Below, one piece after another: positions 20,980 through 38,183 of a DNA stretch of 64,000 nt. Under the pieces are notes generated by a model. The model had not been told where the DNA came from. It was given only the letters and a program-made list of their open reading frames with translations, and made no database searches. Source of the stretch: Deferribacterales bacterium (GTDB lineage Bacteria; Chrysiogenota; Deferribacteres; Deferribacterales; Geovibrionaceae). How positions within the stretch are numbered: position 1 is the stretch's first letter; each line of letters starts with the position of its first letter. The translations under genes were made by a program, and so were the position numbers. The stretch covers positions 96,001 through 160,000 of the forward strand of contig JBFWJS010000007.1 of assembly GCA_050253075.1 (NCBI GenBank), read 5' to 3'.

Positions 20980-21903
20980 ATGAAAAAGTATCTGGTATTA
21001 TCAGTTTTAATTATTACAGCGGTGATATACATGAATTCCGGACGACCTTTACACGAGCTTAAACCTTTTACAGACCTTACGGAAGTTGACGATGCAGAGC
21101 TCCTTGATCTGGACTTTAAAAAGTCTGAATCAGAGGATGTGAAGCTGGAGGCGAACTATCCGCAGTTTCACAAAGGGGGCGATGTGGGCGTGCTCATCAT
21201 GCACGGCTTCACGGCTTCGCCGCTGGAGATGCAGCCCATAGCCGACTTTCTCATAGAGCAGGGATTCAGCGTGTATCAGGTGCGCACGTCGGGGCACGGC
21301 TCCATCCCTGAGCATCTAAACCTTACGACGTATCAGGACTGGTACGAATCTGCCAGATACGGCTACTTTGTGCTGAAGCGCAACTGTAAGAAGGTTTTCA
21401 CACTGGGCGAGTCGATGGGCGGGGCTATGGCTCTCACTATATCCGCACACAACGACACGGACGGGGCAATACTCCTTGCGCCGTGTATAAAGATAAGAAG
21501 CAACCTCACAAGGTTTAGCCCTATACTGTCAAAGTTTGTGAAGCTGATACCAAAGGTCGCAGCCAAAGCATGGACAGACGACGTTAAAGGCGTTTACTAT
21601 GAGCAGTGGCCTGTGGTGGGGATATATCAGCTCCTTATGTATACCAATTATTTAAAAGAAAATATGGACCTTTTCAGCTTCCCTATGCTCGGCTTTCAGT
21701 TTCCGAACGATGCCGTTGTCAGCGGGAAAGCCACCAGAGAATTCTTTGAAAATGCGCCGTCAGAAGACAAGACATACGTCGAATTTCCCGACAAGCTGAG
21801 CCTGACGCACATACTGGTTTCAAAGAAAAATGTTTACAGGGACGAAATGTTTACTAAAATAGCGGAATGGCTTAATGAAAGAGGTGTGAAAGATGATCAG
21901 TAA
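20980..21903 (+). CDS. Alpha/beta-hydrolase (carboxylesterase-like), N-terminal anchor or signal
   Basis: HGFTASP, GHG, GESMGG nucleophile elbow. Confidence 0.85.
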   Translation: MKKYLVLSVLIITAVIYMNSGRPLHELKPFTDLTEVDDAELLDLDFKKSESEDVKLEANYPQFHKGGDVGVLIMHGFTASPLEMQPIADFLIEQGFSVYQVRTSGHGSIPEHLNLTTYQDWYESARYGYFVLKRNCKKVFTLGESMGGAMALTISAHNDTDGAILLAPCIKIRSNLTRFSPILSKFVKLIPKVAAKAWTDDVKGVYYEQWPVVGIYQLLMYTNYLKENMDLFSFPMLGFQFPNDAVVSGKATREFFENAPSEDKTYVEFPDKLSLTHILVSKKNVYRDEMFTKIAEWLNERGVKDDQ

Positions 21904-22711
21904 AAACAAGATTGGCTTTATCGGCGGCGGAAACATGGCAGAAGCTCTGCTGAAAGGTATGCTCAGCGCCGCAGGGCCTCTCGACGTGGCTGTCAGCGAT
22001 CTGAATACGAACAGGCTGGAGCTATTCAAAACTCAATACGGCGTGGACGCCATAACAAAAGATAATAAAAAGGTCGTCGAATACGCCGACGTTATAATAC
22101 TGGCTGTAAAGCCGCAGATCATCCCCGTTATACTCGAAGAGGTCAGGGAACTCGTGACAAAAGACAAGCTGATTGTCTCCATAGCTGCGGGCGTGCTGAC
22201 AGGGTCTATCGAGGCTCATCTTCAGGCAGGCAGCAGAGTAGTGCGTGTAATGCCTAATACTCCTGCTCTCGTGGGGCTGGGGGCTACAGGCATATGCAAA
22301 GGTGCAAACGCCACATCGGACGATATCGATCTCGTGGAAAAAATGATGAATACCATAGGCATCAGCGTTGTCGTGGGCGAAGACAGGATGGACGCCATCA
22401 CCGGTCTTTCAGGCAGCGGTCCTGCTTATGTCTATACATTCATAGACGCTCTCGCAGACGCAGGGGTGAACATGGGTCTGACAAGGGTGAACGCTGTGAA
22501 GCTCGCCGCTCAGACCGTCATAGGAGCCGCAAAAATGGTTCAGGAGACAGGCATACACCCTATGCAGCTTAAGGATAATGTTACGACACCTGCGGGCACG
22601 ACAATATGCGCCCTGCACGAGCTGGACAAGGGAGCCTTTAAATCTACCGTAATGAGCGCAGTGGAAGCGGCTACAAAGAAGGCAGCTCTCCTTGGTAAGA
22701 CTAGTAAGTAA
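21893..22711 (+). CDS. proC: Pyrroline-5-carboxylate reductase
   Basis: GFIGGGNMA, LAVKPQ, RVMPNTP, SGSGPAY, PAGTT. Confidence 0.97.
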   Translation: MISKNKIGFIGGGNMAEALLKGMLSAAGPLDVAVSDLNTNRLELFKTQYGVDAITKDNKKVVEYADVIILAVKPQIIPVILEEVRELVTKDKLIVSIAAGVLTGSIEAHLQAGSRVVRVMPNTPALVGLGATGICKGANATSDDIDLVEKMMNTIGISVVVGEDRMDAITGLSGSGPAYVYTFIDALADAGVNMGLTRVNAVKLAAQTVIGAAKMVQETGIHPMQLKDNVTTPAGTTICALHELDKGAFKSTVMSAVEAATKKAALLGKTSK

Positions 22712-22735
22712 TTAATTTATATTTTCAGATAAAAG

Positions 22736-22766
22736 AAAAGGGCATGTTTTTCGCATGCCCTTTTTT
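22736..22766. terminator. Bidirectional terminator between proC and hypD
   Basis: AAAAGGGCATG-TTTTTCG-CATGCCCTTTT. Confidence 0.85.
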
Positions 22767-22768
22767 AT

Positions 22769-25126
22769 TTACGCCGATTCGTGCTCGGTTCTTTTTATGA
22801 TCTCTTCCTGAAGCTCGTCTGTGATGTCTACGAAATAGTCTGAGTATCCCGCAACTCTCACGATGAGGTCTCTGTAGTTCTCAGGTTTTGCCTGAGCCTC
22901 ACGCAGGATCTTTTCGTCCATAACGTTGAACTGTATGTGGTGTCCGTCCATACGGAAGTATGAGCGCACCAGCCTGCATACATTGTCTATACCTTCGTCG
23001 GTATACATGAACTCTTTGGAGAATCTCTGGTTCAGCAGTGTACCGCCTGTGCGGAGGTGGTCTATCTTAGACGCTGATTTTATAACTGCCGTAGGGCCGT
23101 GTCTGTCTGCGCCCTGAACGGGGGAGATACCTTCGGAGAGCGGGATCTTATTCTTGCGTCCGTCGGGCATAGCACCGATAACACTGCCGAAATACACGTG
23201 TGATGTCGTCGGCAGGAGGTTTATCCTGTGGTATCCGTTGCGTACGTTCGGTCTGCCGTTTACAGACTCGTAGAACATCTCGAATATTTCACGCATAAGG
23301 TCGTCTGCATAGTCGTCGTCATTTCCGTATTTCGGAGTATCTTCGAGCAGTATGGCTCTCAGGTCGCCGTATCCTTCGAAGTCTGCTTCCATAGCTTTCA
23401 GCATGTCGTTCATGGATATTATCTTTTTGTCAAAGATATTGTACTTCAGCGATGCGAGACAGTCTGTTATAGAGCCGAGACCGACACCCTGAATGTATGT
23501 GGTGTTATATCTTGCTCCGCCTGCGTTATAGTCCTTTCCGTTTTTGATACAGTCCTGTGTCAGTATGCTGAGGAAAGGGACGGGGATGTATTTGGCGAAG
23601 AGTTTCTCTATCACCATGTTTCCGCGTATTTTCACATCTATGAAGTAGTTGAGCTGAGTTTTATATATTTCCATCAGCTCTTCAAAGCTGGCGAAATCTG
23701 TCTTGGTCTTAAGCCCGACCTGCTTCTCGGTGCGTTTGTCGTATCCGCCGTAGAGAGTAAGCTCGAGAACCTTTGCGAGGTTGAAATAACCTGAAAGGAA
23801 GTAAGCTTCTGTGCCGAATGCGCCTGATTCCACACATCCTGATGCACCGCCGTTTCTGGCGTCTACGATGTCTTTACCCTGACGCATAAGTTCCTGTACG
23901 ATAGCGTCGGTGTTGAATATAGAAGGCTGACCGAAGCCTGTCTTAACTATATGCAGGGCACGCTTGAGGAACCTGTCGGGGTTCTTTTTAGATATCTGCA
24001 CCATAGAGCTGGGCTGAAGAAGGCGCATGTTCTCTATCACATCGAGCAGAACGTATGAAAGGTCGTTCACGGCGTCTGAGCCGTCTTCCTTTACGCCGCC
24101 GATATTGATGAGTGAGAAGTCAGTGTATGTGTTTGACTCCTTTGCCGTTACGCCCACTTTCGGAGGAGAAGGGTGGTTGTTAAACTTCACCCAGAAGGAG
24201 CTGAGGAGCTCTTTTGCGCTCTCTTCCGTTATCCTTCCTGATTCTATATCCGCTTTATAGAATGGATAGAGGTGCTGGTCGAGCCTGCCCGGGTTGAAAG
24301 AGTCCCACGGGTTTGTCTCGGTGATAACACCTATATGCAGAAACCAGTAAAGCTGCAGAGCCTCCCAGAAGCTCTCGGGAGCGTTGCCAGGTACACGGGA
24401 GCATATAGAGCTCATTTCCTGAAGCTCGAGCTTGCGCTTTGTATCTGTTTCGGCATCTGCCATCTTTTTGAGTGCTATTGCGTTTCTCTCGGCGAAGTTG
24501 ATCATGGCGTCCGCAGCGACCAGCATAGCCTGAAGCTCTTCGTTCTTGTCGAATGCTTCGGGGTCGTTGTGATAGTCGAGTGCTGCTATTGCCTCTTTAA
24601 CTTCTTCTTTCAGTCCGTTCAGACCTGTGCTGAAGACCTTTTTGCCGAGTACTGTGTGTCCGGGAGCTCTCTGCTCCTGAAACTCTGTGAAGACACCTGC
24701 GGAATAGGCTGCGTGCCATTCGGGTGTCATGTAGTGCATCACTTTTTCACGGTGGGATTTACCCTCCCAGAAGGGGAGCACTATCTCTTTGTGGAGCTTG
24801 CGGTTTTCATCATCGACCTTAAAGGAGACCTTTGGTCTGTTGTGAAGCATGTCGAAGTCATCCTCTGAGTGTATGCACACTTCAGGGTAGGTCGGCGTTG
24901 CTTTCGCTTTTGGTCCGCGTTCGCCCACTATGAGCTCTCCGTCGTGGAAGCAGAGCTCTTTTTTATCCATGATATAGTAGAAGGCCTTTGCCCTCTGCAT
25001 AGGTATAGACAGTCCGTCGGCGCCTCCGCCAGCAAAAAATTCCGTGAGCAGCACGCCTCTTTCCGAAGAGACCGTCTCCACTGCATTCAGACTGTTTTCA
25101 CGAAGTTTTTTAATCCTGTCTGTCAT
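22769..25126 (-). CDS. hypD: Glycyl radical enzyme, trans-4-hydroxy-L-proline dehydratase
   Basis: RVAGY glycyl loop, SGCVE Cys loop, HypD-type TEFQEQRAPGH, PWDSFNPGRLDQ, KESNTYTDF, GYFN, LLPTT. Confidence 0.88.
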   Translation of the reverse strand: MTDRIKKLRENSLNAVETVSSERGVLLTEFFAGGGADGLSIPMQRAKAFYYIMDKKELCFHDGELIVGERGPKAKATPTYPEVCIHSEDDFDMLHNRPKVSFKVDDENRKLHKEIVLPFWEGKSHREKVMHYMTPEWHAAYSAGVFTEFQEQRAPGHTVLGKKVFSTGLNGLKEEVKEAIAALDYHNDPEAFDKNEELQAMLVAADAMINFAERNAIALKKMADAETDTKRKLELQEMSSICSRVPGNAPESFWEALQLYWFLHIGVITETNPWDSFNPGRLDQHLYPFYKADIESGRITEESAKELLSSFWVKFNNHPSPPKVGVTAKESNTYTDFSLINIGGVKEDGSDAVNDLSYVLLDVIENMRLLQPSSMVQISKKNPDRFLKRALHIVKTGFGQPSIFNTDAIVQELMRQGKDIVDARNGGASGCVESGAFGTEAYFLSGYFNLAKVLELTLYGGYDKRTEKQVGLKTKTDFASFEELMEIYKTQLNYFIDVKIRGNMVIEKLFAKYIPVPFLSILTQDCIKNGKDYNAGGARYNTTYIQGVGLGSITDCLASLKYNIFDKKIISMNDMLKAMEADFEGYGDLRAILLEDTPKYGNDDDYADDLMREIFEMFYESVNGRPNVRNGYHRINLLPTTSHVYFGSVIGAMPDGRKNKIPLSEGISPVQGADRHGPTAVIKSASKIDHLRTGGTLLNQRFSKEFMYTDEGIDNVCRLVRSYFRMDGHHIQFNVMDEKILREAQAKPENYRDLIVRVAGYSDYFVDITDELQEEIIKRTEHESA

Positions 25127-25131
25127 AAGTT

Positions 25132-25923
25132 TTATCCTCCGATACCTGTGTCGAAACCTTTCGACGAAAAGAATTTTCTGATCTTTTCCATGTGTGTCTT
25201 ATCAGGCTGTTCCACATCTTTCATGTGGTATTCCATGCCTAGTCTTCTGTATTTGTCACTGCCTATCCTGTGATACGGCAGCAGATCAATCTTAATATCG
25301 TCAAATCCGCTGAGGAACTCTGCGAGGCTCTCGATGTTTTTCTCCGTGTCTGTTATGCCCGGTATAACGGGGAACCTGACACGGACGTCCTTGCCCGCTT
25401 CTTTCAAATATCTGAAATTGTCCAGTATAGCCCTGTTGGAAACTCCGCAGTATTCCGTATGTTCTGCGTCGTCCATGAGCTTTATGTCATACAGAAAGAG
25501 GTCTGTGAGCGGCATAGCCGCATCGAGCGACTCTTTCTTTGTATACCCTGTCGTGTCTATACATGTATGTATATCATTCTTTTTGCATTCTGCCAGCAGG
25601 GAAATTAAAAAATTCTCCTGTAGGAAAACTTCTCCCCCGCTGAATGTGACTCCGCCGCCGGATTCTTCATAAAAAATGAAGTCCTTTTTAATGACCTGCA
25701 TCACTTCGGACACGGTCATTTCTTTACCGATGAGTTCTTCGCTGACGTGGACGGAATTGTCCAGTTTCAGTTCTTTCAGTATTTTCTGCGGGGCTTTGTG
25801 TCTGCTTTCAGGGTTATGACACCATATACAGGACAGGGGACACCCTTTGAGAAACACAGTGGTGCGTATCCCCGGTCCGTCGTGTACGGCGTATTGTTTA
25901 ATATCGAATACGATCCCTTTTAT
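25132..25923 (-). CDS. Glycyl-radical activating enzyme (radical SAM), short form; start non-canonical
   Basis: Frame extends past the track start: IKGIVFDIKQYAVHDGPGIRTTVFLKGCPLSCIWCHNPE; GGVTFSGGE; LLPYH. Confidence 0.9.
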   Translation of the reverse strand: MKGIVFDIKQYAVHDGPGIRTTVFLKGCPLSCIWCHNPESRHKAPQKILKELKLDNSVHVSEELIGKEMTVSEVMQVIKKDFIFYEESGGGVTFSGGEVFLQENFLISLLAECKKNDIHTCIDTTGYTKKESLDAAMPLTDLFLYDIKLMDDAEHTEYCGVSNRAILDNFRYLKEAGKDVRVRFPVIPGITDTEKNIESLAEFLSGFDDIKIDLLPYHRIGSDKYRRLGMEYHMKDVEQPDKTHMEKIRKFFSSKGFDTGIGG

Positions 25924-25931
25924 AAAGCACC

Positions 25932-26648
25932 TTAACCTTTTTTACCTAGATATGCTTCCTGAACCTTAGGGTCATTCAGGAGCTCTGATGCTGCGCCTTT
26001 TATGGTCACCTGACCTACATCGAGAACATAGCCTCTGTCAGCCAGCTTAAGGGCTGCCTTCGCATTTTGCTCTACGAGGAGGACTGTCACTCCGTGTCCG
26101 GATATCTTCTTCACTGCGGAGAAGATCATCTTGACCAGAATAGGGGCGATGCCCAGTGACGGCTCGTCCAGAAGGAGAAGCTGAGGCTGTGCCATCAGCG
26201 CACGGGATATAGCCAGCATCTGCTGCTCACCGCCGGAGAGTGTTCCTGCGAGCTGCTTTCTTCTTTCCAGCAGTCTGGGGAAAAGCTCGTATATCCAGTC
26301 GAGTGTTTCTTTATCCGCTTTCTTCTGAGTGTATGCACCCAGCTTTATATTTTCCTCGACACTCAGTGTGCCGAAGACCTGTCTGCCCTCGGGGGACTGT
26401 GCCACGCCGTATTTAACGATCTTATGTGCGGGCACTTTTGTGATGTCCTGACCATTATAAATAATCTGGCCTGATTTTGGTTTCAGCAGGCCGCTTATGG
26501 TGCGCAGGGTTGTGGTCTTGCCTGCTCCGTTAGCTCCGAGGATGGAGACTATCTCACCTTTTTTAACATCGAAACTGATACCCTTGATCGCTGCGATACT
26601 TCCGTATGAAACGACAAGGTCTTTTACCTCAAGCATTGTTTCAGCCAT
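25932..26648 (-). CDS. livF: LIV-family ABC transporter ATPase (LivF-like)
   Basis: GANGAGKT, LSGGEQQM, LLDEPSLG. Confidence 0.93.
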   Translation of the reverse strand: MAETMLEVKDLVVSYGSIAAIKGISFDVKKGEIVSILGANGAGKTTTLRTISGLLKPKSGQIIYNGQDITKVPAHKIVKYGVAQSPEGRQVFGTLSVEENIKLGAYTQKKADKETLDWIYELFPRLLERRKQLAGTLSGGEQQMLAISRALMAQPQLLLLDEPSLGIAPILVKMIFSAVKKISGHGVTVLLVEQNAKAALKLADRGYVLDVGQVTIKGAASELLNDPKVQEAYLGKKG

Positions 26649-27435
26649 TGCTCACTTCCTCCTCATCGTCGTCTGTACCGAGGTATGCCTCGATAACCAC
26701 AGGGTCGTTCTGTACGAACTCTGCTGTTCCTTCGCTGATCTTCGAGCCGAAGTTGATAACTGTTATATAGTCTACAAGCTGCATAACCATGTCCATATCA
26801 TGCTCGATAAGAAGTATCGTGATGCCCATGTCTCTTATTTTAAATATGAGATCCACAAGCTCAAGGGTCTCTTTATCGTTGAGTCCTGCTGCCGGCTCGT
26901 CGAGGATGAGCAGCTCAGGCTCTGTCGCCAGTGCTCTGGCTATCTCTACACGGCGCTGTATGCCGTATGCCAGAGAGTTTGTAGGGGTTGTAGCGTATGG
27001 CATCAGGCCGAGAAATTCCATGATCTCTTTTACCTTCAGCCAGTTGGCCTTCTCATCTTTGTTATAAAATGGAGTACTGAGAAGCCCCTGCAGCCAGTTC
27101 TGCTTAGATTTCTGATGGCGTCCGGAGATGATATTCTCTGCCACGCTCATTTTACCGAAAAGGCGTATGTTCTGAAAGGTTCTAACGATGCCGAGCCCTG
27201 CAATGTCGCAAGGGTGCTTGCCGGCTATGTTTTCGCCTTTCCATACTATTTCGCCGTCTTCCGGTTTATATATACCCGTGATGCAGTTGAAAGCTGTTGT
27301 CTTTCCCGCACCGTTGGGCCCGATGATGCCGTATATCTGTCCCTTTTCCACTTTAAAGGAGAGGGCGTCCATGGCTACTACACCGCCGAATTTCTTTGTT
27401 ACGTCTATCAGCTCTAAAAGCGGAAAGTCTTTCAT
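26641..27435 (-). CDS. livG: LIV-family ABC transporter ATPase (LivG-like)
   Basis: GPNGAGKT, RTFQNIRLF, LDEPAAG, IEHDM. Confidence 0.93.
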   Translation of the reverse strand: MKDFPLLELIDVTKKFGGVVAMDALSFKVEKGQIYGIIGPNGAGKTTAFNCITGIYKPEDGEIVWKGENIAGKHPCDIAGLGIVRTFQNIRLFGKMSVAENIISGRHQKSKQNWLQGLLSTPFYNKDEKANWLKVKEIMEFLGLMPYATTPTNSLAYGIQRRVEIARALATEPELLILDEPAAGLNDKETLELVDLIFKIRDMGITILLIEHDMDMVMQLVDYITVINFGSKISEGTAEFVQNDPVVIEAYLGTDDDEEEVSNG

Positions 27436-28376
27436 GCTTTTTCCTCCGTAACATATTTCGGCAGTTTGCCGTATTTAGCAGGGATTATACCCTGTGGTCT
27501 GAGAACCATGGAAACTATCATTGCTATGCCGAATACAAAGTATCTGTATGTCTGAAACTCTTTGAAGACCTCAGGCAGTACGAACATTATGAATGTACCC
27601 GCCAGAATACCCGGTATTGATGCTTTTCCGCCGACCAGTACGATGGCGAAGAACATTACGGATGTCATGAAGTCGAATGCGCTCGGGCTCACAGCTGTGT
27701 ACTGGATGGTGAAGATGAATCCTGCCAGTCCTGCCATAGCAGCTCCTAGAGCGAAAGAGAATACTCTGTAAAAGCGTGTGTTGATACCGATGCTTTCTGA
27801 TGCTATCGGGTCTTCCTGAATGTAGTGGAGCGCACGTCCTGTCTTGCTCTTCTCGAGGTTTCTGATGATAAGCAGTGTTATCAGCAGAAGCCCGAGAGCC
27901 ATGAAGTAGACTATTACGGGGTTATCGAGATAAACACCCATAACGGCGGCATCCACGCCGAATATGCCGTCGTCTCCGCCTGTCAGCCCGAGGAAGTTGT
28001 TCCTGAGCATCTGGATGAAGACTATGTTGAAGCCCACTGTCGCCACAAGGAGGTAGTCGCCTCTCAGGTGTACGATAGGGCTTGATATCAGTATTGCTAT
28101 AAGGGCAGGTACGATTATAGTAACGGGTATCGCCAGCAGAATGTTAAAACCGAAGTGAACATTCATAATAGCCGTGGCGTATGCGCCCATTCCGAAGAAC
28201 ATCGCATGACCCATGTCGAACATGCCCGCACGTCCGAGAACTATGTCTACGCTGAGAGCAACAACGGAGAAGATGCAGAATGTTGTCGCAATTGTTCTCC
28301 AGAGGTCGTTGCTTACTAAGGGGAGGATGATCATCCCCGCAATAAATATTATGTATCCTAATGTTGATTTTTTCAT
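27432..28376 (-). CDS. livM: LIV-family ABC permease (LivM-like)
   Basis: LRGDYL, TGG..GI, GRAL, hydrophobic helices. Confidence 0.9.
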   Translation of the reverse strand: MKKSTLGYIIFIAGMIILPLVSNDLWRTIATTFCIFSVVALSVDIVLGRAGMFDMGHAMFFGMGAYATAIMNVHFGFNILLAIPVTIIVPALIAILISSPIVHLRGDYLLVATVGFNIVFIQMLRNNFLGLTGGDDGIFGVDAAVMGVYLDNPVIVYFMALGLLLITLLIIRNLEKSKTGRALHYIQEDPIASESIGINTRFYRVFSFALGAAMAGLAGFIFTIQYTAVSPSAFDFMTSVMFFAIVLVGGKASIPGILAGTFIMFVLPEVFKEFQTYRYFVFGIAMIVSMVLRPQGIIPAKYGKLPKYVTEEKA

Positions 28377-29278
28377 TATACCTTCTCCGCTACACGCTCA
28401 CCCAGGATACCCGTCGGACGGAATATAAGGATGATGATAAGTAGAATATAAGTGAAAGCCTCTGCCCACACAGACGATACATAACCCGATATAAGAGCCG
28501 TGAAGAGTCCGAGCAGATATCCGCCCACCATAGACCCGGGGATGTTTCCGATACCGCCGAGGATGGCTGCGATAAATGCGCTGAGACCATAGTTCCAGCC
28601 GAGTGTGAACTCTATGCCTCTGTAATATATACCGATAAAAAGACCGCCCACAGAACCGAGCGCAGCACCGATGATGAAGATGATGATGATAACCATGTTA
28701 ACATTGATGCCCATGAGCTTCGCAGCGTCCTGATTTATGGAGCTGGCTCTGATAGCTGTGCCGTATTTGGTAAAGTTGATAAAGATAGTCAGTGTGATCA
28801 TAAGAACGACTGTGAGTATAAGCATGAATGCCTGAATGAAAGTTATCGTGACACCGAACACTGTCCACGCTGTCTCGGGGAATATCCCTGTCGGGAATGT
28901 GAGAAGATTCGGCCCCCAGTAGAGCATGATACCATTTTGTATCATCATAGATGCACCCAGCGCAGAAACAACTGCTGAAAGTCGGGGAGCATTTCTAAGA
29001 GGACGATATGCCAGACGCTCAAGGATGACGCCTGCTGCGGCAATAATTATTGCTGTAATTAGAAATACCAGTAAAATTACTATAGCCTGCGGCATTCCTG
29101 AACCGACGAACTGTGTGTACAGTACCAGACCTACGTATGCAGAGAGTGCTACCATGTCGCCGTGAGCAAAGTTGATAAGTTTCATAACTCCGTAGACCAT
29201 TGTGTATCCGAGAGCTACGAGTGCGAATATACTTCCAATGGTCAGCCCGTTTACTACTTGCTGTATAAAAATATCCAT
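28376..29278 (-). CDS. livH: LIV-family ABC permease (LivH-like)
   Basis: ALGYTMVYGVMKLINFAHG, AILGGIG, RPTGILG. Confidence 0.93.
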   Translation of the reverse strand: MDIFIQQVVNGLTIGSIFALVALGYTMVYGVMKLINFAHGDMVALSAYVGLVLYTQFVGSGMPQAIVILLVFLITAIIIAAAGVILERLAYRPLRNAPRLSAVVSALGASMMIQNGIMLYWGPNLLTFPTGIFPETAWTVFGVTITFIQAFMLILTVVLMITLTIFINFTKYGTAIRASSINQDAAKLMGINVNMVIIIIFIIGAALGSVGGLFIGIYYRGIEFTLGWNYGLSAFIAAILGGIGNIPGSMVGGYLLGLFTALISGYVSSVWAEAFTYILLIIILIFRPTGILGERVAEKV

Positions 29279-29301
29279 AAAATTTCCTTTGATGCTAATA
29301 A

Positions 29302-29329
29302 TAAACAGGGCTGTAATTAAACAGCCCTG
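29302..29329 (-). terminator. Intercistronic hairpin after the binding-protein gene
   Basis: CAGGGCTGT-N6-ACAGCCCTG then TTTATT on the minus strand. Confidence 0.7.
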
Positions 29330-29342
29330 CTGTGAAAACTTG

Positions 29343-30473
29343 CTATTTAATTACAGGATAGTCTACGCCGTAGGAACCATCTGCCTGTACATCATATACA
29401 TAGAAGATAGAACCAAGACGCTCACCTGCTTCGTTCCACTTGAGAAGACCGGAGAAGCCGTTCAGCTCATTAGTGTGGAGCCAGTCGGAAAGCTTTTTAG
29501 TATCTGTCGTGCCTGTTTTCTCGATAGCTGTGAGGAATGCAAGCATACCGTCAGCATTGAGAAGGGCCCATGTAGAAGGCATTTTTGAACCGTATTCTGC
29601 TTCATATGCAGCGAGGAATTTCTTCGCGCTGTCATAAGCGAGCATGTCAGGTGTAGGAACGTTGATGATCTTAGAACCTGCAGCAGCAGAACCGGCAAGG
29701 TTTGCGAACTCTACGTTGTCGTTAGCATCGCCGCCGATGAAGTCAGCTTCTATACCAAGCTGTCTCTGCTGAGCACGGAGGAGGCCGCCGTCAGAGTAAT
29801 AGCCTGAGAAATAGATAGCATCAGGATTCATAGACTTGATCTTTGTAAGAACAGGTGTGAAGTTCTGGCTTTTTGATTTGATTTTGCTGTAATCGATTAC
29901 GTTACCGCCGACAGCTTTGAGCTCTTTGATAACGGAATCAGCAAGACCTGTAGCATAAGAAGAGAAGTCTGAAACAACAGCTATCTTCTTATATTTTTTA
30001 AAGTTTACCATGTAGTCAGCTGTGAAAACAGCCGCTGCAGAGTTAGGGTTAGAGTTCCTGAAGAATGTCCAGTAGGCATCCTTTACAAGGTCGTCTGATG
30101 TACCGTCAGTTGTCTGAAGAACGCCTGCACGGTAGTAAGTTTTCTGAGCTGCGAGAGCTGCACCGGATGTATAAGAACCGATGACCATTATTACGCCTTT
30201 CTGAACAAGTTCTTTAGCGCAAATGGCAGCTTTCATGGCCTGACCTTCATCGTCACAAGTGAATACTTCGAGCTGCTTGCCGAGAAGTCCGCCTTTTTCG
30301 TTGTACTGCTTAGCGAGGAGTCTAGCGGCATTATCGATACCCTGACCTTCGTTAGCGTACTGTCCTGTGATCGGAGCCTGAACACCGACCTTGATTGTGT
30401 CAGCCGCAAATGCCGTAGCTGCAAAAAGTGCAGATAGCAGTACCGCGAGTGACAGTGTAAAAAGTTTCTTCAT
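29343..30473 (-). CDS. LIV-family periplasmic amino-acid-binding protein
   Basis: Signal peptide ending AFA-AD, APITG..A..G, GGLLGK, DD; start ATG 30473 behind GGAGG. Confidence 0.9.
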   Translation of the reverse strand: MKKLFTLSLAVLLSALFAATAFAADTIKVGVQAPITGQYANEGQGIDNAARLLAKQYNEKGGLLGKQLEVFTCDDEGQAMKAAICAKELVQKGVIMVIGSYTSGAALAAQKTYYRAGVLQTTDGTSDDLVKDAYWTFFRNSNPNSAAAVFTADYMVNFKKYKKIAVVSDFSSYATGLADSVIKELKAVGGNVIDYSKIKSKSQNFTPVLTKIKSMNPDAIYFSGYYSDGGLLRAQQRQLGIEADFIGGDANDNVEFANLAGSAAAGSKIINVPTPDMLAYDSAKKFLAAYEAEYGSKMPSTWALLNADGMLAFLTAIEKTGTTDTKKLSDWLHTNELNGFSGLLKWNEAGERLGSIFYVYDVQADGSYGVDYPVIK

Positions 30474-30584
30474 ACAATCCCTCCAGATTATTTCCGTGTC
30501 TATGTAAAGCACGGATAGACGTATAAAGTCCTTATAGTCAAGTTATACTTTACTATATTATCCATACTTTATCAATTAATTAGC

Positions 30585-32219
30585 TTACTCCGCTTCCTGA
30601 TGAGGATATCCGATTCCTACAGGCGACACAAAGTTCTCTTTAATTGTGCGTGTGTTAACCCATCTGATGAGGTTGAGGTAACTTCCCGCTTTGTCGTTTG
30701 TGCCTGAACCTCTACCGCCGCCGAACGGCTGCTGGCCAACAACTGCACCTGTAGGTTTGTCGTTGATGTAGAAGTTTCCTGCTGAATCTTCAAGCACTTC
30801 GAACGCCTTGTTGATAGCTGCTCTTTCTGTTGCGAATATTGCGCCTGTGAGGGCGTATTCGTTGCCGGAGTTGCATTTTTCAAGGTATTCTTCGTACTTT
30901 TCATCCTCATAGAATGTAACTGTGAGGACAGGTCCGAATATTTCTTCTTTGAATGTTTTAAACTCAAGGTTTTGTGTTGTAATAACTGTCGGCTCGATGA
31001 ACCATCCTTTGGAATCGTCATAGTTACCGCCGATAACGATCTCAGCGTCAGAAGCCGCTTTTGCATAGTCTATGTAGCTTGTGATGTCTTTGAATGCTTT
31101 TTTAGACACAACAGCAGTCATGAAGTTTCTGAAGTCGAAAGGTGAGCCCATTGTGATAGAGCCTGTCACTTCTTTCATCTTTTTCAGGTATTCGTCTTTC
31201 ATAGAAGCAGGGATGTATGCACGGGATGCTGCGGAGCATTTCTGTCCCTGATACTCGAATGCGCCCCTTACGGATGCTGTTACGAGTGCGTCTATGTCTG
31301 CGGAGCTGTGTGCGAAGATGAAGTCTTTACCGCCTGTTTCGCCTACGATACGTGGGTAAGATTTGTATCCCCATATGTTTTTACCGATTGTTTCCCAGAT
31401 AGTTTTGAAGACCTTTGTGCTTCCTGTGAAGTGGATACCGCCGAAGTCTCTGTCTGAGAATGTTACGTCGGATACGTCTTTAGATTTACAAGGGATGAGG
31501 TTGATTACGCCGTCAGGCATGCCTGCTTCCTTGAAGATCTTCATGATGAGGTATGGAACGTAAACAGCATCTGTAGAAGGCTTCCATATACAAACATTAC
31601 CCATCATAGCAGGTGATGTTGGCAGGTTGCCTGAGATAGCTGTGAAGTTGAAAGGTGTAACAGCGAGGATAAATCCCTCGAGAGGGCGGTACTGAAGGCT
31701 GTTCCACACGCCTTTAGAGTTGTGGAGCGGCTGCTCGGCATATATCTGCTGCATGAAGTATACGTTGAATCTAAGGAAGTCGATAAGCTCACAAGCAGAG
31801 TCAATCTCGGCCTGTACGGCTGTTTTACCGATGGAGAGCATTGTGGCTGCGTTCATCTGTGCACGGTATTTTGTGCTGATGAGCTCTGCTGCTTTGAGGA
31901 AGATGGCGGCACGGTGGAACCAAGGCATTTTGCCCCATTCAACACGGGCTTCCATAGCTTTATCTATCGCAAGTTTGATCTCTTTTGGTCCTGCCTGGTG
32001 GTATTTACCAAGTTTGATAGAGTGATCGAAAGGTGCTGTGATCTCGACAGTATCGCCTGTCTTGATCTCTTTTCCGTCGATTACCACAGGTATCTCTATA
32101 TACTGCTCGGAAAGTTCTTTAAGAGCTGCTTTGAGCTCTGCTTTCTCTTTACTGCCTTCGCGGTATTCGAGAACCGGCTCGTTAGTAGGGTATGGTACGT
32201 TGAAAACACTATTGTTCAT
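30585..32219 (-). CDS. pruA: L-glutamate gamma-semialdehyde (P5C) dehydrogenase
   Basis: NEPVL, PFNFTAI, FTGST, GETGGKD, EYQGQKCSA, EEIFGP, GSGTNDKAG. Confidence 0.96.
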   Translation of the reverse strand: MNNSVFNVPYPTNEPVLEYREGSKEKAELKAALKELSEQYIEIPVVIDGKEIKTGDTVEITAPFDHSIKLGKYHQAGPKEIKLAIDKAMEARVEWGKMPWFHRAAIFLKAAELISTKYRAQMNAATMLSIGKTAVQAEIDSACELIDFLRFNVYFMQQIYAEQPLHNSKGVWNSLQYRPLEGFILAVTPFNFTAISGNLPTSPAMMGNVCIWKPSTDAVYVPYLIMKIFKEAGMPDGVINLIPCKSKDVSDVTFSDRDFGGIHFTGSTKVFKTIWETIGKNIWGYKSYPRIVGETGGKDFIFAHSSADIDALVTASVRGAFEYQGQKCSAASRAYIPASMKDEYLKKMKEVTGSITMGSPFDFRNFMTAVVSKKAFKDITSYIDYAKAASDAEIVIGGNYDDSKGWFIEPTVITTQNLEFKTFKEEIFGPVLTVTFYEDEKYEEYLEKCNSGNEYALTGAIFATERAAINKAFEVLEDSAGNFYINDKPTGAVVGQQPFGGGRGSGTNDKAGSYLNLIRWVNTRTIKENFVSPVGIGYPHQEAE

Positions 32220-32259
32220 CTTTTTCTCCCTTTTTTATTAGAGTTGTAGTGTTGTTGTA

Positions 32260-33180
32260 TTATCTGCCGCCGGTGAGGAAGCCTTTAATGGCTGAGCCCA
32301 CGATGGCCGGGTTTTCCTGAAGTCTGCGTATGCTGTATGGAAGCCAGTCTTCGCCGAACGGTGTGTAAATACGAAGAAGATGTCCTTCAGCAAGTGTGTT
32401 TTTACGGAGTTCGGAACGCACGCCGAGGAGCATCTGGAACTCGTATTGTTCTTTAGTAAGATTGTGCTTTTTAATAAGCTCTTTAGCGCCGTTTACGAGC
32501 ACATCGTCGTGTGTGGCGATGCCGACGTAGGCGTTCTTTTCAAAAAGAAGGTCAAGGCCTTCAAGGAAGTTTTCCTGAACCTTTTTACGGTCGTGGTATG
32601 CGATGTCTGCAGGTTCTTTGTAAATACCTTTGCAAAGACGTATATTTGCCTTTTTAGTATTAGCTGTGATATTTCTGAGGTCATCCAGAGTACGCTTCAT
32701 ACATGACTGTATAACTGTACCGCATGAGCCTTCCATGTCGTTTACTAGCTGAAGGTAAAGGTCAATTGTGTAGTCAGTGTACGGGTTGTTTTCCATATCG
32801 ATACGTACAAATATGTTTCTCTCATATGCATACTTAACAAGCTCTGTGATGTTTGCTGTACAGAAATCCATACCTACGAGTGCACCGAGTGCGGTTGGTT
32901 TGATAGAAATGTTGGAACCGAGCTTTTGTGAAGCGATGTTGTCAAGCACCAGCTTGTACATATCAACAGTAGCTCTTGCCTTTTCAGGGTCTTCGTTAAA
33001 TTCTCCGAGCAGGTCGATTGTTGTTACTGCTCCTACCTCGTTATATTCTCTGGTGAGGTTAAAAGCATCTTCCGGGAAAGCTCCTGCCACATAACGTTTT
33101 GCGAAGAATCTTACAAATCCTTTCGGCATAAAGGGCATCATGTTAGCGATCATTGCATTTATCATTGTATCTTGCTCCAA
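32260..33180 (-). CDS. Monofunctional proline dehydrogenase
   Basis: RYVAG, DLLGE, SIKPT, RIDME, RLCKGIY, ATHD, EFQMLLG, YSIRRLQE. Confidence 0.95.
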   Translation of the reverse strand: MEQDTMINAMIANMMPFMPKGFVRFFAKRYVAGAFPEDAFNLTREYNEVGAVTTIDLLGEFNEDPEKARATVDMYKLVLDNIASQKLGSNISIKPTALGALVGMDFCTANITELVKYAYERNIFVRIDMENNPYTDYTIDLYLQLVNDMEGSCGTVIQSCMKRTLDDLRNITANTKKANIRLCKGIYKEPADIAYHDRKKVQENFLEGLDLLFEKNAYVGIATHDDVLVNGAKELIKKHNLTKEQYEFQMLLGVRSELRKNTLAEGHLLRIYTPFGEDWLPYSIRRLQENPAIVGSAIKGFLTGGR

Positions 33181-33183
33181 ATA

Positions 33184-33732
33184 TTAGAATGTCGGCGGCG
33201 TATTGACCCATAAGAGTACTGTTTCGCCGTCAAAAATATTTTTCCATCTGTGGGGAACATTTGAGTTATAGAGGGCACTGTCTCCCTCTTCGAGAGTCAT
33301 CTTATTTCCGTCAACGGTGATCTCGACACATCCTTTCAGTACGTATACGAATTCTTCACCCAGATGTATGTTGTACTCGTCACCGCTGTATGCTCCTTTT
33401 TCAAGGATATGATAAAGGGGCTCGAGGACAGAGTTTGCTCCCCTCGGCTTCAGAGATTCATAAACAACCTTTGATGCCTTTGAGCCTATCTTCATTCTGT
33501 TGTCTTTGCGAACTACAACAGCGTCTTTCGGGGAATCGTCGTCTGAGAAGAATGATGTGATGGTAACGCCGAGTGCATCGGCTATCTTTCGGAGGCTGGC
33601 TACAGTGGGGGATATCATGTCGCGTTCGAGCTGCGACAGGAATGATATACTGCATCCGCTGGTCTTGGCCAGATCCCTAAGGGTCATGTTGTGTTTTAGT
33701 CTTAGCTCTTTAATGCTTTTACCAAACTCCAA
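33184..33732 (-). CDS. XRE-family HTH plus cupin transcriptional regulator (PuuR-like)
   Basis: HTH TLRDLA..SISFLSQLER, cupin H.GEE...PH; GGAGG then TTG start. Confidence 0.9.
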   Translation of the reverse strand: MEFGKSIKELRLKHNMTLRDLAKTSGCSISFLSQLERDMISPTVASLRKIADALGVTITSFFSDDDSPKDAVVVRKDNRMKIGSKASKVVYESLKPRGANSVLEPLYHILEKGAYSGDEYNIHLGEEFVYVLKGCVEITVDGNKMTLEEGDSALYNSNVPHRWKNIFDGETVLLWVNTPPTF

Positions 33733-33755
33733 GATAAACCTCCGTTTGATTCATA

Positions 33756-33789
33756 TTGTTCATTATAGTGAACAAATTAAGCATGTCAA
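33756..33789 (-). promoter_or_regulatory. Consensus sigma70 promoter with an overlapping palindrome
   Basis: TTGACA-N16-TATAAT on minus; TTGTTCA-N6-TGAACAA at 33756-33775 covers the -10. Confidence 0.8.
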
Positions 33790-38025: not shown

Positions 38026-38183
38026 GATAGAAATATATACGCTTATCTTTTTGAACACAAGAGTATAAATATTAATAATTTGTTCACATTGAGAAATTTT
38101 ATTTAACATTTTTATAGGCAAACTATCGCAACTTATGTGTATCATTTGATATATGCATCAATATTCATTAATTGAGGTTGCCT

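Follow-up and report, generated by a model that had tools for sequence, protein, structure and literature searches.

Dehydration of trans-4-hydroxy-L-proline (abbreviated Hyp) to 1-pyrroline-5-carboxylate (P5C) is established chemistry for the glycyl-radical enzyme (GRE) HypD of C. difficile. In that organism HypD, its activase HypD-AE and a P5C reductase are described as feeding Stickland reduction by the Prd system (structures 6VXC and 6VXE; PMC7077986, PMC6219649). Most hypD carriers have no adjacent proC, and it is unclear what becomes of their P5C; for loci where hypD lies beside a dehydrogenase, as in Oscillibacter valericigenes, oxidation of P5C to glutamate has been proposed (Huang et al. 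2018, PMC6219649). The aerobic Hyp route of Pseudomonas and Sinorhizobium runs through an epimerase and D-Hyp dehydrogenase to 2-oxoglutarate (PMC6219649). Here we analyse a ten-gene hypD operon in a 64,000-nucleotide stretch of a Deferribacterales genome of the family Geovibrionaceae (GCA_050253075.1, contig JBFWJS010000007.1, positions 96,001–160,000; hereafter the window), in which Hyp and proline (Pro) probably converge on P5C and are oxidized to glutamate for anaerobic respiration. The literature that we covered, which leaves out most subscription papers, contained no experimental test of an oxidative HypD route and no description of this operon; supplements may list Deferribacterales hypD loci.

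The operon comprises ten co-oriented genes encoding a regulator, proline dehydrogenase (PRODH), P5C dehydrogenase (P5CDH, PruA), the ATP-binding cassette (ABC) importer LivKHMGF, a radical S-adenosylmethionine (SAM) activase and HypD. This gene set was proposed in the initial annotation, and family scans place every member on the same strand at the positions below, given in window coordinates in the direction of transcription.

33762..33789, minus strand: predicted sigma-70-type promoter, TTGACA-16-TATAAT (12/12 consensus match)
33757..33774, no strand: palindrome TGTTCA-N6-TGAACA overlying the −10 box, candidate operator for the XRE-cupin repressor (from sequence)
33184..33732, minus strand: XRE-cupin regulator of PuuR-like architecture (HTH_3 and Cupin_2 domains)
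32260..33180, minus strand: monofunctional FAD proline dehydrogenase, PRODH (PF01619 above cut-off)
30585..32219, minus strand: PruA, P5C (glutamate gamma-semialdehyde) dehydrogenase (TIGR01236, 761 bits versus a cut-off of 613.6)
29343..30470, minus strand: LivK-type substrate-binding protein (PF13458)
29304..29331, minus strand: hairpin between livK and livH, an mRNA stabilizer or partial terminator (z −5.0)
28376..29278, minus strand: LivH permease (family scan)
27432..28376, minus strand: LivM permease (family scan)
26641..27435, minus strand: LivG ATPase (family scan)
25932..26648, minus strand: LivF ATPase (family scan)
25132..25923, minus strand: radical-SAM GRE activase, short form, probable ATA start (TIGR02494 above cut-off)
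22769..25126, minus strand: HypD, trans-4-hydroxy-L-proline dehydratase (NF043068, 1237 bits versus a cut-off of 1100)
22734..22766, no strand: hairpin resembling an intrinsic terminator in both directions, between hypD and proC (folding)
21893..22711, plus strand: proC, housekeeping P5C reductase, a flanking gene (TIGR00112, 282.7 versus a cut-off of 196.75)

From the regulator to hypD, the intergenic gaps are 3, 40, 114, 64, −1, −4, −8, 8 and 5 nt, the last two separating livF from the activase gene and the activase gene from hypD. GC content and GC content at third codon positions give no sign of a recently foreign cluster. The source genome is 99.9% complete.

The locus shares with the C. 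difficile system the enzyme family, 14 active-site residues, an adjacent activase and the predicted P5C product. It differs in that hypD shares its orientation with the genes for PRODH, P5CDH and an ABC importer, in the absence of a co-oriented dedicated proC (a co-oriented hypD–proC layout is seen in Cetobacterium), in an activase that lacks the two auxiliary cluster motifs, and in that no PrdA-family gene or racemase was found. With the O. valericigenes locus, where hypD lies beside a putative P5C dehydrogenase, it shares the proposed route from Hyp through P5C to glutamate; here, however, the genes form a ten-gene unit with PRODH, an importer, a regulator and a candidate operator, present in four genera of a respiring lineage. 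Split PRODH and P5CDH genes recall the put clusters of the Thermus/Deinococcus type (2EKG, 4H6Q); added to them here is a radical, oxygen-sensitive entry for Hyp, and the XRE-cupin regulator is a further difference. Like the Pseudomonas and Sinorhizobium pathway, the proposed route would achieve net oxidation of Hyp as a carbon and nitrogen source, but entry is by radical dehydration, and no racemase/epimerase-family gene was found in the genome. The enzymes are thus known and the route has been proposed before. What is new is an unusually complete arrangement, along with a palindrome conserved across the −10 box, an activase of the short form that probably starts at ATA, and indications of block transfer between genera.

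The GRE is assigned to the HypD family by both score and active-site residues. It reaches 1237 bits against the HypD model NF043068, with the next family at 646, and 1008 bits against C. difficile HypD (6VXC), with glycerol dehydratase next best at 562. Identity as HplG, HpyG or HpzG is rejected by score (375, 494 and 439 bits, respectively, against 7VUA, 8ID1 and 8IOF), and HypD is the top cluster in a search of representative proteins. Fourteen active-site residues of the C. difficile enzyme are named in PMC7077986 (F152, R156, H160, W277, D278, K326, S334, D339, F340, C434, E436, Y450, T645 and G765), and all 14 are identical in the GRE, where the catalytic residues are Cys431, Glu433 and Gly760. 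The motif set listed in the initial annotation (EFQEQRAPGH, WD, S....DF, CVE with its Tyr, LPT and RVAG) is therefore right throughout, and the GRE does not fall outside HypD, an outcome that had been named there as refuting. The same 14 residues are invariant in the nine proteins of the family and in all 94 HypD proteins counted; an outgroup GRE retains only the Cys, Glu and Gly. No other PFL-like GRE was found in the source genome, and the gene adjoining it upstream encodes a radical-SAM protein with a CxxxCxxC motif.

The adjacent genes for PRODH and P5CDH would provide the oxidative steps. The closest solved relatives of PRODH are 2EKG and 4H6Q, and the protein scores below the cut-off of the Thermus-type equivalog NF045947 (193 versus 500). 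The Tyr of its R[IV]YxPFG motif (RIY motif), aligned to Thermus and Deinococcus PRODH, is kept in 13 of 13 sequences and is the probable equivalent of E. coli Tyr540. That residue is cited as enforcing proline over hydroxyproline (PMC3718742). With the Hyp-excluding Tyr kept, PRODH is unlikely to be a Hyp oxidase, so HypD is the likely entry point for Hyp. No ornithine aminotransferase, another possible source of P5C, scores above cut-off in the genome.

Use of proline as electron donor has been described for Geovibrio ferrireducens. The source genome encodes a 1569-residue NAD-dependent glutamate dehydrogenase (GDH; PF05088) plus an NADP-type one, citrate synthase, four 2-oxoacid oxidoreductase subunits and 11 molybdopterin oxidoreductases, and it contains 20 frames with at least three CxxCH motifs, the largest number being 28. 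Genes napMADGH appear in all eight Deferribacteres listed in Table 2 of PMC6896113. A multiheme cytochrome cluster elsewhere in the genome (L147; G000:C3:108000-130000), encoding a 28-haem protein and an OmcA/MtrC-like protein, is a candidate extracellular electron transfer system.

In the proposed pathway, LivKHMGF would import Pro and Hyp, as its gene context suggests. The activase would install the radical at Gly760, and HypD would convert Hyp to (S)-P5C by a redox-neutral dehydration; PRODH would oxidize Pro to P5C, passing electrons to quinone; and PruA would oxidize P5C to glutamate, yielding NAD(P)H. The large NAD-GDH encoded elsewhere in the genome could then release ammonium and 2-oxoglutarate for the tricarboxylic acid cycle. 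Electrons may pass to a NapA-like reductase, other molybdoenzymes or multiheme cytochromes, and we infer that Hyp and Pro could serve as electron donors for respiration. More speculatively, P5C could leak through the housekeeping ProC to proline, with PRODH recovering it, as a possible supply of inducer.

To see which genes belong to the unit, we surveyed 61 genomes of the order, 16 of them from the same family. A hypD gene is present in 16 of the 61, distributed over 9/16 genomes of the family, 4/4 of family f4 and 3/3 of family f8. Within the family, PRODH, P5CDH, the LivK ortholog and the regulator occur in exactly the nine genomes that carry hypD, and none of the five was found in the other seven, which are 96–99% complete. 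The ten-gene order is identical in 8/8 regions from relatives, and thus in 9/9 carriers from four genera, including carriers with the unit at different chromosomal sites. Because the carrier genomes are kin, this co-occurrence is a pattern and not a statistic. One LivK ortholog (G001:C18:84322-85443) contains two internal TAA stops and is either a broken gene or an assembly error.

The operon promoter is conserved, with TTGAC and TATAAT invariant in 9/9 carriers. The palindrome over its −10 box is exact in eight of these and has one mismatch in the ninth. In three of the four genomes searched from f2, a family in which hypD was not found, pruA is immediately preceded by the genome's only exact copy, which overlaps a promoter-like site in both genomes that were read. 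The source genome contains one other exact copy and 16 sites within one mismatch, versus 8.3 expected. The palindrome may resemble the E. coli PuuR box. An ortholog of the regulator is present in 24 of 60 relatives, and each of these also has P5CDH; the regulator is missing from two genomes with P5CDH, which are 64% and 73% complete. The best reading is that the regulator is a repressor of a proline regulon and that hypD came under its control. Divergent XRE-cupin regulators also occur at the hypD loci of Cetobacterium and Enterococcus (L157:4993-5574; L158:6435-6977), 39% and 29% identical to the one described here; a paralog in the source genome reaches 34%, so their orthology stays putative.

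LivK probably binds proline or hydroxyproline, a prediction drawn from gene context. Two of the seven regions read around its orthologs (62–63% identity) have the ABC genes directly after genes of the proline-racemase and ornithine-cyclodeaminase families, which match best, in every case below cut-off, the trans-3-hydroxyproline dehydratase and Pyr2C reductase-like families. In family f4 a racemase-family gene, which has a Cys/Thr motif pair and is closest to PDB 6R76, and a cyclodeaminase-family gene lie directly ahead of the orthologous Liv system (L163:14273-16276, minus strand; L166:7520-9508, plus strand); these genes are a candidate route from trans-3-hydroxyproline to proline in anaerobes. 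The closest named homologs of LivK itself come from the cultured genera Denitrovibrio (79% and 77%), Geovibrio (75%) and Limisalsivibrio (72%), so strains are probably available, and the source genome is likely that of a Denitrovibrio-like member of the order.

The initial annotation had proposed that P5C is oxidized to glutamate here and not reduced in a Stickland reaction. The joint inheritance of hypD with PRODH, P5CDH, LivK and the regulator supports this proposal, as do the respiratory and glutamate-catabolic genes and the searches for PrdA and racemase genes described below. Several observations weigh against the respiratory part of the proposal or against links on which it draws. Denitrovibrio acetiphilus is described as oxidizing essentially only acetate. 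The best NapA-like match in the source genome is below its family cut-off (664 versus 904), the 2-oxoacid oxidoreductases have no assigned substrates, and co-occurrence across related carriers is not independent evidence. LivK is only distantly related to all solved binding proteins, and five of the seven regions around its orthologs show no proline-related neighbour. Specificity of the palindrome is called into question by the f4 and f8 promoters, which carry only versions with two to three mismatches, and by exact copies elsewhere in genomes that lack the cassette. The strong hairpin after livK may reduce expression of the genes downstream. Finally, the same genes would also serve nitrogen or carbon assimilation alone.

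This last point is the core of the rival that survives best, in which Hyp and Pro are scavenged as a nitrogen source, as glutamate and proline building blocks or as osmolyte, and energy comes from acetate or hydrogen. Scavenging fits an ABC importer of high affinity, HypD flux could be held low by the activase's probable ATA start and by the hairpin downstream of livK, and building blocks and carbon and nitrogen supply are among the HypD roles given in PMC6219649. Against assimilation alone stand PRODH, by established chemistry a quinone-linked catabolic enzyme, the large catabolic-type NAD-GDH, and a regulator that tracks pruA and PRODH across the order. We consider it unlikely that assimilation accounts for the operon. 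If oxidation of P5C for respiration is correct, Hyp in anoxic habitats would not only be a Stickland acceptor but would also donate electrons for reducing nitrate or metals. Since the operon unites import, dehydration, oxidation and regulation in a lineage in which no proline reductase was found, the proposed oxidative route is directly testable; the known enzyme families and the prior proposal limit the surprise.

A second rival sees hypD and its activase as passengers that sit last in a proline operon and are separately expressed or act on another hydroxyproline-like substrate. It draws on the seven f4 and f8 genomes, where a different hypD lies away from put genes and has a GntR-like regulator adjoining in the three loci read, and on hypD loci outside the order: among the best 80 of 551 matches (43 with full flanks), none has pruA, PRODH, proC, LivK or the regulator nearby. 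The conserved ten-gene order in all nine carriers and four genera and its movement as a block argue the other way, as do active-site residues that are those of HypD and scores for HpyG, HpzG and HplG of less than half. Passenger status is very improbable, and oxidation of Hyp-derived P5C by the enzymes of the same unit remains our preferred interpretation. The f4 and f8 units (L026:7860-11864; L032:7582-11535) consist of a GntR-like regulator, a long activase and hypD, unlinked to pruA or PRODH, and are apparently a second acquisition in the order.

Genes for a reductive fate of P5C were also sought. The PrdA family (PF09338) was found in 0/61 genomes of the order by a profile search that was positive on an Enterococcus replicon control and blank on an earlier five-genome control. 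A search for proline racemase (PF05544) found none in the source genome or its 15 family relatives and was positive in five genomes of other families. The search for the PrdB/GrdB selenoprotein family (PF07355) was blank, with no control genome matching either. The absence of proline reductase genes from the window, noted in the initial annotation along with a suggested genome-wide search for prdAB, thus extends to PrdA in the whole genome, and for PrdB has a blank search without a positive control. Stickland reduction is rejected at the gene level by the results for PrdA and racemase. A selenocysteine tRNA gene (tRNA-Sec) is present at G000:C1:634849-634945, so selenoproteins are possible.

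The proC gene is the sole copy above the TIGR00112 cut-off in the source genome, and this family is above cut-off in 57/61 genomes of the order. It follows an alpha/beta-hydrolase gene in 10 of the 11 regions fetched, and since proB is also present in the source genome, proC is needed for biosynthesis. Convergent with hypD in five of the nine carriers, it lies 190–315 kb from hypD in three others (G005, G006 and G007) and on another contig in the last (G011). It belongs to the flanking housekeeping operon and not to the conserved unit, and we rejected it as a cluster member; the earlier proposal that ProC provides a linked branch to proline does not hold. On each strand, the hairpin between the two convergent genes folds better than 200/200 shuffles (z −5.4 and −4.2), in agreement with the shared terminator predicted previously. 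This terminator marks the insertion boundary, because proC does not follow the unit and stays with its housekeeping neighbour. Use of HypD with the adjacent ProC to make proline as an electron sink, in the manner of Clostridia (Stickland reduction or proline excretion), could appeal to the convergent arrangement in 5/9 carriers, but with a single housekeeping proC in another operon and far away in the remaining four, no PrdA family or racemase found, and a PRODH in the same unit that would re-oxidize proline, it is the least probable alternative and can be set aside.

The cassette occupies the site between proC and leuB in four genomes of genus g1, and the g2 arrangement is rearranged in a manner consistent with an inversion. 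In four regions of genus g4, proC faces leuB across only ~0.5–0.6 kb, and two g3 regions have unrelated inserts at this spot. In two regions (L025 and L131; G004) the regulator-to-proC segment seems to have the opposite orientation to that in the window, and proC is split from its usual upstream gene.

The history of hypD in the order was examined with a quick IQ-TREE analysis of 51 rows, including 31 of the 78 named loci of full length, which were selected for their closeness to the query HypD; two loci without a full open reading frame were dropped. HypD of the family groups, at a support of 99, with enzymes from Bacteroidota and others that have a short activase, and is separate from f4 and f8. 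A single vertical origin of all hypD genes in the order is disfavoured by the tree, by activase architecture and by an approximately unbiased test that rejects a forced grouping of all 16 order sequences (p 0.038, which is borderline given that the group was chosen after the tree was seen). The family clade is sister to, and not nested in, the sampled Bacteroidota, a placement that does not establish direct donation from within that phylum. One carrier (G006, the only one among seven g4 genomes) groups with genus g4 by proC, leuB and lptF and with g3 by hypD, by pruA (100/100) and by PRODH (70/99). This conflict points to movement of the block between genera. Elsewhere in the order, other families have a pruA–PRODH pair, in many cases accompanied by the same regulator and a Liv system. 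An order-wide proline regulon of regulator, pruA and PRODH may have gained a Bacteroidota-type activase–hypD pair within the family, and the enlarged block would then have moved between genera.

By motif content, the activase is of the short Bacteroidota type. Its best match is the HypD-activase model NF043069, at a score below cut-off (320 versus 425); it passes TIGR02494 and lacks any CxxCxxCxxxC motif between its SAM-cluster and GGE motifs, so that the 2x[4Fe-4S] insert is missing. Both motifs are absent from 70/70 activases parsed beside the closest outside hypD genes (10 loci were unparsed), and 67 of the 70 have the same 50-residue spacer. All seven hypD activases of f4 and f8 have the two motifs. 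Upstream of the conserved N-terminus there is no in-frame ATG, GTG or TTG, and an ATA at 25923 yields MKGIVFDIK. An ATA or ATT is positioned six bases past an AGG in six of the eight family genomes parsed; of these six, one has an ATG in frame as well and three have a TTG upstream. Translation likely starts at the ATA (25923-25921, minus strand), for an activase of 263 residues, and not at the GTG at 25857; given this start, standard gene callers would truncate the N-terminus.

Taken together, these features suggest a larger picture, which we advance tentatively and with slightly less than even confidence. In it, a self-contained mobile operon would allow nitrate- or metal-respiring Deferribacterales to respire Hyp derived from collagen or cell walls completely to CO2 and ammonium via a radical dehydratase. 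The XRE-cupin repressor would act on TGTTCA-N6-TGAACA, and the non-canonical start would damp radical loading by an activase free of auxiliary clusters.

Two further genes were observed near the cassette. In three carriers outside g1, a gene for an EamA/DMT-family transporter, absent from the window, lies just past hypD, on the opposite strand in two (L019:15445-16305; L020:15763-16623) and on the same strand in the third (L025:1735-2610). The window itself also encodes, at 38172-40520 (plus strand), a chemoreceptor with a nitrate/nitrite-sensing NIT domain and a C-terminal zinc-binding CZB domain.

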